A stretch of 64,000 nucleotides of DNA from NCBI RefSeq assembly GCF_057098645.1, contig NZ_CM169472.1; one strand, 5' to 3'. The position numbers are program-made. Positions 58,801 to 64,000 of this stretch are shown piece by piece (within the stretch, counting starts at the first letter, position 1; every line of letters starts with the position of its first letter).

Positions 58801-61800
58801 TGGATATTCAGCGCCCGTAAATGTTCACTGAACCGTTTGTAATATGGATATGGTCATTCACCGTTTTGAAGCTGCCGCCCGCTTTCTTCGCCAGCGCCTT
58901 CATTTCACTGCTTAATTTACTCATGAATCCCCTGCAACATAAACAAACAGTCTCCGGCGTGTGCTGTTTGGCTGCGCCAGAACGATACCTTCACGCCGGA
59001 GTGGCTGGTTGTTGAGGTTTAAGGAGTTTCAGGCTGTACGCGGTACAGACTGCCTGACGAAGCAGGGGTGTCTCCGGAGCATCGTGCCCCCCTCGGTATC
59101 GATCTTTTTCTCCTTTACTCTGAGCTGACAGCTGCCCCAAAGGGCATGTCAGACGGCGGAAATATGGCGCAGGCCAGGACTGGCGCGGCTTGCGGCGGTG
59201 AGTTGTGCGGCGTCACTTTGCCCTGTCGCTGGCGCGACCAAAGTGACGCCTTGTCTGGTGCAGGGGGGAAACGTTGCGCTTCTGGTGCAGTATTCAAAAA
59301 TTAACAGTCTGGTGCAGATTAACGGTCACGCGGCAGCAAAGCCTGCTGTCTTTGCAGGCCGCAGCCCGTCATGTAAAAGGCGCTGGTCATCAGCAAGGGA
59401 TAAGTAGGCCGGAGAAATTCCGGCAAAGGAAAGCCGTTCAGCCGGTGAAGGCCATTGCGGTAAAGCGATGACGATGGAGCTGTCCTTGTATATATGTACT
59501 TCGCCTCAAACACTTTCGCGTTCCGGTATTGCGGAGGTCGTACCGGTAGCAAGGGCTGGTCGTCCTGTTAAATCAGGGGCTTCTTGCAGACCATGAAGCC
59601 AAAGGGTGCCCGAAGGCATAGTGCAGGAGGGAGATTACACCGTTATTTCTGGCGCAGAAAGGGGAAATTCATTTTTCTGGAAAAAGGGTTTCCCCTTGAT
59701 TTTAACGTGTATTTGTGAACGTGAAATGCTGAGCTAACCTCTCAATGACCGGATAACAGGCCGTGGCTTTTGCGATGCCTGCCAGAGATCATATTCAGAC
59801 TGCATCCCCGCCCATAGCTCAGCGCGGGTATTCAGCAGCGCCGCCAGACGCAGCGCCATATCAGCCGTCACTGGCGCATGTCCATTGAGAATGCGGGATA
59901 ACCGGGAGCGGGAAATGTTCAGCGCAGAAGCTGCCTGCACAATACTTGTGCCGCCCAGATAATCACGAAGAACCGCTCCCGGATGATGCGGATTAAACAT
60001 GCGCATAAAAACGACTCCGGCTGTGACCTTTACCAGCAGTGGGATGGTATCCTGCCGCGCTTCGCTTGTCTTCTCCCGGCTTTCCGCCAGCAAAACGCTG
60101 GTGGAAAGCCGGGAGAGTCCGATTTTACTGTAACGGTGCTCTTGCGGGTTCTGTTATCAGGAGTACCGCTTTCGCATGGGTCTCTCAGTGCGGTTGCCCT
60201 GATCATCGAAGTATCTGGACGGACAGATGATTTCCGGTGATGTTTCCAGCACATCCGCAATGAGTTTTTCGCCGCGCGGCCACGAACGGCTCAGCGCGTT
60301 TGCCAGCGTGGCGGACGCCAGTCCCGCGCTGCGGGAAACCTCAGCCAGCGATGTCCTCTGTTTTCTCAGTCCCGCGATAATATCGGCGGGGTGCCAGTCT
60401 TGCTGCATCATGCTGGCCTCCCGTCGATAACCTGTACGCCGTCAGCGGTACGTATCCAGTGCGGGGCGTTCAGATCGGCGGCAAAATACCAGACCAGCTC
60501 GCACAGCAGTCCGGTCAGCGTCGTTTCGGTTTCCGGTAACAGTGAGTGACCATTCAGTATCTGCGTCAGCGCCAGACAGTAATCGCAGAGTGATTCTGCA
60601 TCAGGTTCAAAACCGGGTGAAACATCGGGAACATCATTCGTAATAAAACCGTCGATCAGATGCGGCGGGATCGGCTCGTTCAGCGTGGGCCGCAACAGTG
60701 CAAGGCAGGTATTAAGTCTGCCACAGAGCGCCATTTTTAGCGCAGGATTGTGGCATTCGATTAGGGTCTGGGCGAATCGATCGCCGTGAGCGGTCAGAAT
60801 GGTGAAATCGGTAGCGGCGCTGAAAGGAATAGAGAGTAAATCGCAGTCAGGGGAAGGACTTGTAGCCATTGGACAATCTCCAGTATGTGGTTTTAAATCC
60901 ACCATCAGAGGTTCCAATCTCCTGGGTGGTGGACTGAGCGAGGTTGGAACTACCGATCATACTGGAACCGGCGCACTTTGCAGTGCCCTCACCCAGCCCA
61001 CCATTGAGGTACAGCCAAGCGCACGACACAAAAAATGTGTCGCCAGTATGAATAATCCGGGGTTCCAATCCCGACGCCTGATTTTGCAGACGCAGGCTAA
61101 GGATACTGTGATTAGCAATGAGTCACATGAGGGCATATGGATATCCCGGAGCAGACTTACCGGGGCCAGTACCTCGCCAGAAAGAGCGCCGTTCCTGTTA
61201 TTTATTATCCCCTTACCCGTATTGAAATAAAATTCTCACGGCGTGGTTTGCCAATAAACATTGTTCGCCCCTGTTGAGAGGTGCTCCTGTCCCCCAGACG
61301 CATTCCGCTAATCTCGTCCGGTGCAAGCCCCAGTCTCAAATCCCAGGCGAACTGATCACGCAACAGGAATGATACAAACGTGGTCAAAGGCTGATAATCT
61401 TCACCTTCCGGCAAAAAAGCCAGGTAACGTTCCAGTTTCAGGTTATTAATGCACAACAAAAATTTACCACTGAGATCCGGGATATGTCTGCCGATAATGA
61501 AGTTTTTTCCCAGCACCGATTTGCCCTGCAATCCCCCTTCCCCGGTCAGTTCACTGACCCCCAGCCGGTTCTGTTGTTCCTGCGGGATTGGCACCCGGCG
61601 CAATTGCCAGTTCTCCAGTTTCACATCTGACAGATCAAAACAGTGCTCAATAAGGTTACAGACAATTTCCGGCGAGCGCCCTGTTCCGGCAAGAATGCCG
61701 GCATATGCCAGCAGTTTACTGTGGCAGATATTAAGTCGCTCACGAACCCGCGGATTACCCAGCCCGATAAGTGAATATATGCTCTGCGATATGGCATCAG

Positions 61801-64000
61801 AGCCATCGTTACGGAAGTTGACATGCCAGCGGTATTTTTGCCAGATGTGATAGCGAAACTGAGTCCAGCGATGGCTGAACAGATTCAGAAAATCCGCTGT
61901 TGCGCTGCTTCCCTCCTGTGCCTGCTGCCAGGCCATCTCATCCAGGTAGTAACCCGGTAGTGGCGATGAACTGCCTGATAATCCCATAAAATGAGTGGTC
62001 ATCACGTATTGACCGGCTGCATTTTTTTCCAGCGATTCAATATCCCGCAGGGGAAATGCAATGCTGGCACTGGCACGAAAATGAACATTTTCCTGTTCAG
62101 GTTCCGTTCTCAGTGAAACGGCATCTTTCCGGCTACGGTACAGCAGGTCAGTGACCACAAAAAAGTTACCATAACAAGCATCGCGCAACGCCTGCGTTTC
62201 ATCCTGGTTTGTTGTGACGTCTGCGGGGGTTACATCGCCGGAAACTGTCCGGTTCTCTCTGTCCATCGCCAGACCTCCTCGGTTTGGGTATTAATCATGG
62301 TCAGCATATGCCAGGAATTGACACTGGCGTACAGGGCGAAAAAATGCGACAACACGGTTCCCAGGTGATACATCTCCCCTTCACAGGCGAAAGGTTGCGG
62401 GTTGACATACAGCGTGGATGACAATCCGCGTACCACTATGTCCCGGAAGACACGATCTGTGGGCCGGGTTTCCAGTTTTTCCAGCGCATTCAGTTTTTCC
62501 GGCGACAGCCGGGCGCAGAATGGTGTATGAATACCGCAGCGGTCGAAAGTGCGCAAAATATCGCGCAATACCTCCACATCATTCATGGTCAGATAATTGA
62601 GCGTCATAGTGTTGAGTAGCGACCAGTGGCGCGGGCCGTCCGGCACTGGCGGTAAAGGTGGGGTTGGCGTGGTGACGTTACGAAAAGGGGCCACGGATGC
62701 ATCCTGCCCCACGGGAACGCAGATATCACCGGGTGCCAGGCGACAGGGCTGATCGCCGTTCGTACAGATGAGTGATATCTGAATGGGATCCCGCCCCGTG
62801 AGAGTGGCGTCCGGTACACTGTTGTCAGCATGGCGGAATGAAATAAAATGAGCCGGATTGACACTAAGCAGCGAACGACGAACGCTGTGCTTCCAGTAAA
62901 TAATTCGGCGCTCCTGGTGATATTCCATGGGGCGCAGGGGACTGTCTGATGACAGCCATTTGCGCTGATTTCCATGGCGGGAGAGCGCGACCAGATCATC
63001 ATCCCTGAATGTGTTGTGCTCCTGCCCCTGTACGCTGTCAACACGAAAAATATCAAAATAACCGGGCCAGAATTGGCTGGCCTGCAACGGATATTCCTGA
63101 TGCGGGTTATCGGGCGTAACAGGAACGGCGTCATGAAAAAACAGGTTCACCGCCGGAGTACAGTGCAGACGCAGGGATTGCCTGCTCAGATTAACAGTTT
63201 CCGGCAATGGTCGATCAAAGCGAAGGCGCAGCGTAAAGGGGCGGGAGATAATCTCTCCGGGCAGCGATATTCCGCTGAGATCAAAAAAGAAGAATGCGTC
63301 AGGAAAACAAAACCAGTCCTGAATTATCCGGTAGCCACTGTGAAGGCTGCCGGGTTGTGGCAGCAATGATTCATCATGACTGAACCCGGAAGGCTTTATC
63401 GTCAGCCCTGGCTGAGGGTAACGTCGTCCACCGGTAATCAGTTCCGCGCCTCTCCGGTAGCGACAGAGCCACAAATAAACCTGCCAGCGGCTGATAATGT
63501 TTTCATCTCCCAGCCATAAACTGATGCCTTTGAGATCGGCTGCCGTTATTCTGCTGCCTGGCAGTGGCGCAAAGATGATATCAATGATGCCCTGATCAGG
63601 TGTACTGTAATTATTTACGTTATGAATATGTAATGGCAGCAACCTGATATTACGGCACAGGGTAAAAATACACGGCGGCTCTTCTTCTTCCGGCAGATCA
63701 TCCTGTGCGCCGGGTATCAGATAACTTTCTTCAGGGTGACTATCCCTGTGGGGGGCATTCATCACCTGTGCATCGCGGGGAATATCGCACACTGTGGCAA
63801 GGGTATTATCAGGCGTATATTCGATAATCGTCATGGGGGGAACCGTGCGCAGATAACTGGGACACAAACGTTTAATTAATGGCACGGTGATTTCGGGAAA
63901 CCGGTCTTCAATCTTTTCGCGTAGTCTGCCGGAAAGAAAGGCAAATGTTCCCATCAGTCGTTCTGTATCCGGGTCTACATCTTTATCACCGAGAAAGTTT

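Follow-up and report, generated by a model that had tools for sequence, protein, structure and literature searches.

The final 8.7 kb of a 64,000-nucleotide stretch of DNA from NCBI RefSeq assembly GCF_057098645.1 (contig NZ_CM169472.1), referred to here as the window, form the left portion of a genomic island at the tRNA-Asn gene asnT, and the window ends within the island's cargo, in the genes tssF and tssG for the baseplate wedge of a type VI secretion system (T6SS). Public records were matched over window positions 57000-64000, which are 100.0% identical to the chromosomes of E. coli UTME-3 and of the O145:H28 strains RM12761 and RM13516 and 99.9% identical to the remaining O145 genomes listed, and the content past base 64000 was read from these annotated records. 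The asnT gene (55243-55318, plus strand, called by ARAGORN) ends in a 20-bp direct repeat, CCAGTCAGAGGAGCCAAATT, comprising its last 16 nt and the following 4 nt (55303-55322); tRNA and left attachment repeat (attL) together occupy 55243-55322. A second exact copy (attR) lies 13.7 kb downstream, past the window, at window-equivalent 68999-69018. In the public-record stretch that covers the locus (L001) the two copies fall at 18304-18323 and 32000-32019, against a chance expectation of none. The island bounded by attL and attR is thus 13.7 kb long with its right end 5 kb beyond the window, and attR is followed by the ordinary chromosomal genes yeeJ, yeeL, shiA and amn. The features that define a tRNA-integrated genomic island are all found here, namely an integrase beside the tRNA gene, repeats of the tRNA 3' end and variable presence among strains, the island occupying asnT in 29 of 5426 complete E. 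coli genomes.

The initial annotation had described a partial TssF and a TssG with overlapping start and stop at the window edge, and both genes are borne out by open frames and family matches. The minus-strand tssF (62230-64000) is open over 62230-63999, giving 589 codons plus a stop up to the window edge, while its first 30 codons lie past base 64000 with the start at window-equivalent 64089. The encoded frame matches PF05947 (1.5e-89), and the full 619-residue TssF from the identical public record scores 428.8 bits against TIGR03359 (cut-off 260). The first cargo gene, tssG (61205-62266, minus strand), is intact and encodes a 353-residue wedge subunit matching PF06996 (1.1e-81) and TIGR03347 (313.5 bits, cut-off 143). 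The tssG ATG precedes the tssF stop by 37 nt, so that the two genes overlap over this length, and a 335-nt gap separates tssG from the 153-residue gene downstream of it. A single-residue polymorphism is seen in the O145:H28 group at TssF residue 163 (window ~63500), where the window reads HIHNVNNYSTP and RM12761 reads HIHNVNNCSTP.

Past the window, vgrG is divergent from tssF across a 304-bp spacer and is followed in order by genes for a 139-residue protein, a 422-residue protein and a PAAR protein. VgrG (704 residues) scores 587.7 bits against TIGR03361, and the PAAR protein (93 residues) matches PF05488 (5e-16), with attR ~470 bp further on. The T6SS content of the island is therefore exactly tssF, tssG, vgrG and PAAR, spanning 7.3 kb, and the interval between attL and attR contains no tssA, B, C, E, H, J, K, L, M or hcp. 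The initial annotation had taken the window to end inside a T6SS locus carried on, or adjacent to, the asnT island, and had looked to the DNA beyond base 64000 for tssE, tssK, tssB/C, hcp and vgrG, regarding the lack of any further core gene as fatal to that picture. The genes do sit on the island, and vgrG and PAAR do continue past the edge. However, up to attR there is no tssE, tssK, tssB/C or hcp, and with nine tss genes and hcp absent there is no secretion machine, so that the picture of a T6SS locus is wrong even though vgrG is, literally, a further core gene.

A complete T6SS cluster with its remaining core genes just beyond base 64000 would have explained why tssF runs off the window and why vgrG and PAAR come next. 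In the matched record, however, vgrG, two cargo genes and PAAR are all that intervenes before attR, yeeJ, yeeL and shiA, there is no other tssFG place in these genomes, and published gene tables lack the remaining core genes. The annotated record past 64000 and the attR repeat thus refute this explanation; a different structure there is very unlikely, and we give a complete cluster next to no credence.

The spacer between tssF and vgrG (L001 27091-27394; window-equivalent 64090-64393) has a GC content of 34%, compared to ~52% in the genes, and contains a TTGACA that is conserved in four related modules. A sigma-54 motif was sought in this intergenic region and not found. The spacer is a candidate divergent promoter region that may be silenced. 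A promoter and terminator scan of 59600-64000 yielded nothing above shuffle expectation worth interpreting.

The 422-residue protein (L001 29905-31173; window-equivalent 66904-68172) belongs to a very small uncharacterised family, and it has a confident AlphaFold model, yet the model finds no fold match in the PDB. A profile of the family reaches proteins whose aligned segment bears the Pfam domain Ntox44, and comparison of the family with the Ntox44-domain family by hhalign gives a probability of 99.8% (E 4e-28), with the Ntox44-defining DxK, GN and DxxxD motifs conserved and aligned. From this profile homology we conclude that the protein is a divergent, predicted Ntox44-like toxin. The 139-residue protein, a small membrane protein with an N-terminal hydrophobic helix, is probably its immunity partner. 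These two proteins diverge faster than the rest of the cargo. Between O145 and Escherichia sp. MOD1-EC7003, TssF, VgrG and PAAR are 91-92% identical, compared to 52% for the 422-residue protein and 47% for the small membrane protein. The same asnT island is present in E. coli AHM8C212RI, where TssF, TssG and PAAR match the O145:H28 proteins exactly and VgrG shows 90% identity, while the toxin/small-protein pair has been replaced (45% and 31% identity). In Enterobacter the small membrane protein is duplicated. The cargo behaves as an effector locus with exchanged effector cassettes.

Backbone genes and sibling islands

The remainder of the island is shared with islands that carry other cargo. 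By blastn, the asnW islands of E. coli E57 and ST2747 are homologous to window 55243-61093 and to the final ~106 bp of the island at attR. The homology breaks at 61093, about 110 bp before the tssG stop, and this break marks the junction between backbone and cargo. The shared DNA includes the tRNA, the integrase, a second recombinase, a HigA-like gene, a Ner-like gene, a gene for a 153-residue protein and an ash remnant; the cargo itself is not shared, being an Rhs toxin and a DUF2169 adaptor fragment in E57 and an Rhs toxin and a TPR protein in ST2747. In K. pneumoniae the same 153-residue/Ner/Integrase_1/int set flanks AbiE, TacAT and DUF4747, and in Dickeya dianthicola the 153-residue backbone set flanks a type I restriction-modification system and DarTG; the islands of both species are free of T6SS genes. 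The island is therefore built of two modules, a shared backbone and the tssG-tssF/vgrG-toxin-PAAR cargo. The initial annotation had suggested that the unknown protein and the two regulators beside tssG might be locus-specific T6SS accessory components. They are not T6SS accessories, because sibling islands with other cargo share them; they belong to the island backbone, where they may regulate or maintain the island.

The unknown protein had been given as a 169-residue open reading frame. This frame is present with a TTG start at 60408-60917 (minus strand), but alignment of 38 family members, in which all 37 homologues begin at an internal ATG, sets the start at this ATG (60869), giving a 153-residue protein (60408-60869). 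The family comprises 234 homologues across Enterobacterales, all labelled hypothetical. Hidden Markov model searches, of the kind that the initial annotation had proposed, gave no match in Pfam, NCBIfam, PHROGs or PADLOC. The AlphaFold2 model is a four-helix bundle with a predicted local distance difference test score of 68 and only generic fold matches. The stop codon of this gene overlaps the ATG of the Ner-like gene as ATGA, and the two are translationally coupled.

The Ner-like and HigA-like regulators had been listed within a feature that began at 60408; both are matched by families, and both lie just outside that boundary. The Ner/SfsB-like winged-helix regulator (60157-60411, minus strand) matches HTH_35 (PF13693, 2e-29; 101.7 bits, above the cut-off) and the transcriptional repressor family phrog_769 (2e-26), whereas its score of 100.6 bits against the SfsB equivalog is below the cut-off of 150. 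By these scores the gene product is Ner-like and not SfsB itself. The HigA-like helix-turn-helix regulator (59734-60036, minus strand) matches HTH_3 and TIGR02607 (88 bits, cut-off 47.7). A HigBA toxin-antitoxin pair was considered and rejected, with HigA matched and an adjacent HigB absent: the 120 nt between the HigA-like ATG (60036) and the Ner-like gene contain no listed toxin-like reading frame, and a HigB-like neighbour is likewise missing from the sibling islands inspected, which have the same arrangement. The HigA-like protein probably acts as a stand-alone island repressor.

At the left end of the backbone lies an intact P4-type tyrosine integrase of 420 residues (55480-56742, plus strand; Pfam Arm-DNA-bind_3, Phage_int_M and Phage_integrase, and annotated in RefSeq). 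The second recombinase, of the Integrase_1/Phage_int_SAM_2 type (58041-58924, minus strand), is a pseudogene annotated as frameshifted with an internal stop, a 205-residue fragment of which matches PF12835 (2e-59); it is intact (294 residues) in the sibling islands of E. coli E57, the lysV island and Klebsiella. Between integrase and decayed recombinase the DNA is AT-rich (GC 0.39-0.43 over 57000-58000), and the sole open reading frame there, for a 99-residue hypothetical protein (56969-57268, minus strand), has no family match. The backbone ends in an ash-like remnant (60847-61068, minus strand) that is 66% identical over 35 residues to the annotated Ash of E. coli E57 and no longer scores against Pfam Phage_ASH. 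The remnant overlaps the start of the 153-residue gene.

Two further observations may be recorded here. A lambdoid prophage (window ~36276-54135) with RusA, DicB, an exonuclease and a Cro/CI-type repressor carries two phage-borne tRNA genes at 36276-36528 and ends in a frameshifted integrase beside a tRNA-Ser (54162-54251), immediately upstream of mtfA and asnT. In Salmonella enterica subsp. houtenae two islands of the asnT backbone family lie near each other in the yeeO region, where asn tRNA genes flank them; one has a tssFG-vgrG-Rhs cargo and the other an int-ash-153aa-Ner set.

The resident system and relatives of the cargo module

The O145:H28 lineage has been reported to lack OI-7, the T6SS of O157 (PMC5567499). 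A survey of O145:H28 lists homologues of 5 of 22 reference cluster genes (tssF, tssI, aec11, aec22 and aec32), with aec14-19 and aec23-31, including clpV, absent (PMC9144400, Table S1), and simply counted the island genes as homologues or leftovers of 'T6SS-2'. Comparison of the aspV loci shows the deletion directly. In RM12761 the locus (NZ_CP007133.1, 245413-248233) holds one hypothetical gene and a terminal Hcp gene beside yafV. Aligned with the aspV locus of AHM8C212RI (L013 20413-23233 versus L026 5831-50000), it shows 99.5% identity as far as the 5' end of the Hcp gene, and the alignment resumes just before yafV, leaving a clean gap of ~41.5 kb relative to AHM8C212RI. The skipped stretch contains vasL, tssM, tssA, vasI, tssH, tssL, tssK, tssJ, tagH, tssG, tssF, tssE, tssC and tssB, together with hcp, two vgrG genes, PAAR and effectors, and so amounts to a complete cluster. 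Sensitive blastn searches with tssF-tssG as query matched one place only, the asnT island, in each of the O145:H28 genomes listed.

As to the parts of a complete T6SS, O145:H28 has an intact baseplate pair tssF/tssG and a spike, vgrG (tssI) plus PAAR, and neither the island nor the rest of the genome supplies a sheath, tssE, tssK, a membrane complex, tssA or clpV, the aspV locus keeping one Hcp. Because the aspV T6SS is deleted, the module cannot assemble a sheath, tube or membrane complex in O145:H28. The module would thus be stranded and mechanically inert in this lineage, with every T6SS gene of the cargo still intact, and the presence of tssF, tssG, vgrG and PAAR in O145:H28 should not be taken to indicate a functional T6SS. 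The aspV-type system is present in about half (~51%) of E. coli genomes, and AHM8C212RI has an island of the identical type alongside a complete aspV T6SS. Four other E. coli genomes with the module also have a second tssFG place.

Co-residence bears on whether the module might complete or repair a defective resident T6SS that lacks tssF, tssG or vgrG, the two forming one split system in place of a machine with an add-on. Incomplete Enterobacter clusters without TssEFG and VgrG do exist (PMC10763514). Nevertheless, the one co-resident cluster inspected, that of AHM8C212RI, has intact tssF, tssG, two vgrG genes and PAAR, and O145:H28 has no partner cluster at all; we regard a split system as very unlikely.

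Gene contexts of related TssF proteins were obtained from exact-protein look-ups, supplemented at one locus by a single-protein pattern scan of contigs that reaches close relatives only. The contexts inspected are those of 6 of the 15 database clusters of the clade to which the island TssF belongs, plus the MOD1-EC7003 locus. Wherever TssF is 57-92% identical, vgrG is divergent from tssF-tssG, effectors follow vgrG, a PAAR gene is usually present and there is no other structural core gene. The relatives comprise Escherichia sp. MOD1-EC7003 (TssF 92%), S. enterica houtenae (74%, with an Rhs toxin), Enterobacter (71%, tssG lost), an E. coli lysV island (60%, with the same backbone and a DUF4123 adaptor), S. 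salamae (59%) and a human-gut metagenome contig (57%, with Rhs). The conserved unit includes both tssF and tssG in six of the seven relatives inspected. TssF proteins of 47-50% identity, by contrast, sit in complete clusters of the aspV/OI-7 type with the gene order tssB-C-E-F-G-tagH-J-K-L-H-vasI-A-M. In a neighbour-joining tree the TssF proteins of the small modules, from Escherichia, Salmonella and Enterobacter, form one clade nested among those of full clusters, and on this placement the module lineage branched off from the enterobacterial T6SS type found at aspV.

Ratios of nonsynonymous to synonymous substitution (dN/dS) were calculated pairwise by the Nei-Gojobori method. Between O145 and MOD1-EC7003, where dS is unsaturated (0.23-0.34), dN/dS is 0.17 for tssF, 0.11 for tssG and 0.15 for vgrG. 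All pairs of small modules fall at 0.07-0.28, and a full-cluster pair, Citrobacter-Enterobacter, gives 0.12 for tssF and 0.14 for tssG. Judged by these ratios, the module is under purifying selection.

These data bear on the possibility that an island T6SS was once complete and has left the module as a decaying remnant without function, the apparent conservation reflecting recent spread. A host without a T6SS, decay in some copies and the pseudogene state of the backbone recombinase are all consistent with such a remnant. Against it, the four-part layout persists down to 55-60% TssF identity with open frames of 1.85 kb and 1.06 kb, and dN/dS values of 0.11-0.28 are comparable to those of working clusters. 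Moreover, the clade arose once, effector cassettes are actively exchanged, and none of the seven contexts is intermediate in gene content, with tssE or tssK still in place for instance. We consider a remnant unlikely, while leaving it an appreciable share of the probability.

Upkeep independent of any T6SS would account for a module that is intact in a host without one: the locus might be kept for immunity against kin that deliver the same toxin, or as a stock of effector cassettes, and tssF, tssG and vgrG would be hitchhikers. As is typical of immunity genes, the small membrane protein diverges fast; in Enterobacter it is duplicated. Orphan immunity islands, however, normally shed structural genes, and purifying selection on 4 kb of structural genes would go unexplained. 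This explanation is accordingly hard to favour, and we consider it distinctly unlikely.

A possible auxiliary role and known counterparts

The account that we prefer as a whole is that the asnT island is a mobile element of two modules, whose selected cargo serves as an auxiliary plug-in to a resident T6SS and is stranded in the lineage studied here; we assign it a probability of roughly 0.55. Its descriptive part is held with high confidence, and its plug-in mechanism tentatively, at rather less than even odds. According to this mechanism the module would secrete nothing alone. A resident T6SS would supply the sheath, tube, TssE, TssK, membrane complex, TssA and ClpV, while the module would contribute the spike (VgrG and PAAR), the toxin with its immunity protein, and the wedge proteins TssF2-TssG. 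In T6SS baseplates (TssF)2-TssG wedges surround and contact the VgrG hub, and this contact may be the reason why tssF-tssG are carried in the module: the wedge proteins would cradle the VgrG hub so that a foreign spike is built into the baseplate, and the divergent island VgrG, 50-58% identical to resident VgrGs, would be accommodated through its own wedge. In O145:H28 the cell could gain no more from the module than protection by the putative immunity gene. The one observation pointing to secretion of the island VgrG and effector by a main T6SS is the co-residence seen in AHM8C212RI.

Several observations weigh against this account. The plug-in of the module into a resident machine is itself an inference. 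The island proteins are diverged from the resident aspV-type proteins (TssF 48%, TssG 53-57% identical) and would nonetheless have to engage the TssE and TssK of the resident machine; parts taken from different T6SSs often cannot replace one another. About 26 of 31 E. coli genomes that carry the module lack a second tssFG place, nearly all of them belonging to one clone. Individual copies are damaged: tssG is intact in one S. houtenae isolate, split in another and uncalled in a third, it is lost from the Enterobacter copy, and one O145:H28 strain has been reported with a point deletion in tssF. Finally, the neighbour-joining tree of TssF proteins carries no bootstrap support.

If the plug-in account is true, a resident machine is able to assemble hybrid or alternative baseplates to suit a foreign spike, and baseplate composition, not only effector load, would be reprogrammable by gene transfer. 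The module would then offer a natural system for studying how the TssF-TssG wedge reads VgrG specificity and for probing the tolerance of T6SS baseplates towards mixed subunits. In addition, the cargo draws attention to a toxin family not yet characterised, together with a probable immunity partner. The individual gene calls are not new, tssF, tssG, vgrG and PAAR being already labelled by RefSeq/PGAP. What appears to be undescribed is the unit, a compact tRNA-island cassette that combines two non-secreted baseplate proteins with a spike and a toxin and is selected across several genera. No description of auxiliary modules bearing tssF-tssG was found in the open-access literature. With some hesitation, and at clearly less than even odds, we suggest that these islands could be mobile 'baseplate-plus-spike kits', the first auxiliary modules with their own TssF/TssG wedge in addition to VgrG, PAAR, toxin and immunity protein.

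Three groups of known systems are comparable. As an integrated element, the asnT island resembles the P4-integrase tRNA islands of Enterobacteriaceae (at asn tRNA genes and pheV), which likewise have the integrase beside the tRNA, a repeat of the tRNA 3' end and a backbone with exchangeable cargo, and are present in some strains and not in others. Unlike the named tRNA islands, it has no recognisable replication, capsid or conjugation genes, and its backbone (int, Integrase_1, HigA-like, Ner-like, 153-residue protein, ash) appears under no name in the open-access literature searched.

In its cargo the island resembles auxiliary or orphan vgrG clusters, such as the Aux clusters of V. cholerae and the orphan vgrG islands of Enterobacteriaceae, which likewise lie off the main cluster and have the order vgrG, toxin, likely immunity gene and PAAR. 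The asnT module has the same attributes, a vgrG away from any main cluster followed by an effector and PAAR, with the toxin predicted by profile homology and the immunity gene a probable one. As in those clusters, the effector cassette is exchanged from strain to strain and the structural part is kept, and dependence on a main T6SS would be shared as well. Some auxiliary clusters are also found on integrase-bearing islands. In the reviews and surveys consulted, auxiliary clusters consist of hcp, vgrG, PAAR, adaptors, effectors and immunity genes; the asnT module, in contrast, lacks hcp and adds the non-secreted tssF and tssG. Because tssF-tssG belong to the conserved unit, we regard the module as a variant and not as a plain auxiliary cluster.

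By sequence, the nearest known system is the aspV-type T6SS (OI-7 of O157:H7, the 'ACE T6SS', T6SS-2 in PMC9144400, and its Enterobacter and Citrobacter counterparts), to which the module shows identities of 47-50% for TssF, 53-57% for TssG and 50-58% for VgrG. The two share the overlap and order of tssF-tssG and a vgrG on the opposite strand. They differ in extent, aspV-type clusters containing all 13 core genes in about 25-40 kb, whereas the module comprises four T6SS genes in 7.3 kb, forms a clade of its own and resides on tRNA islands.

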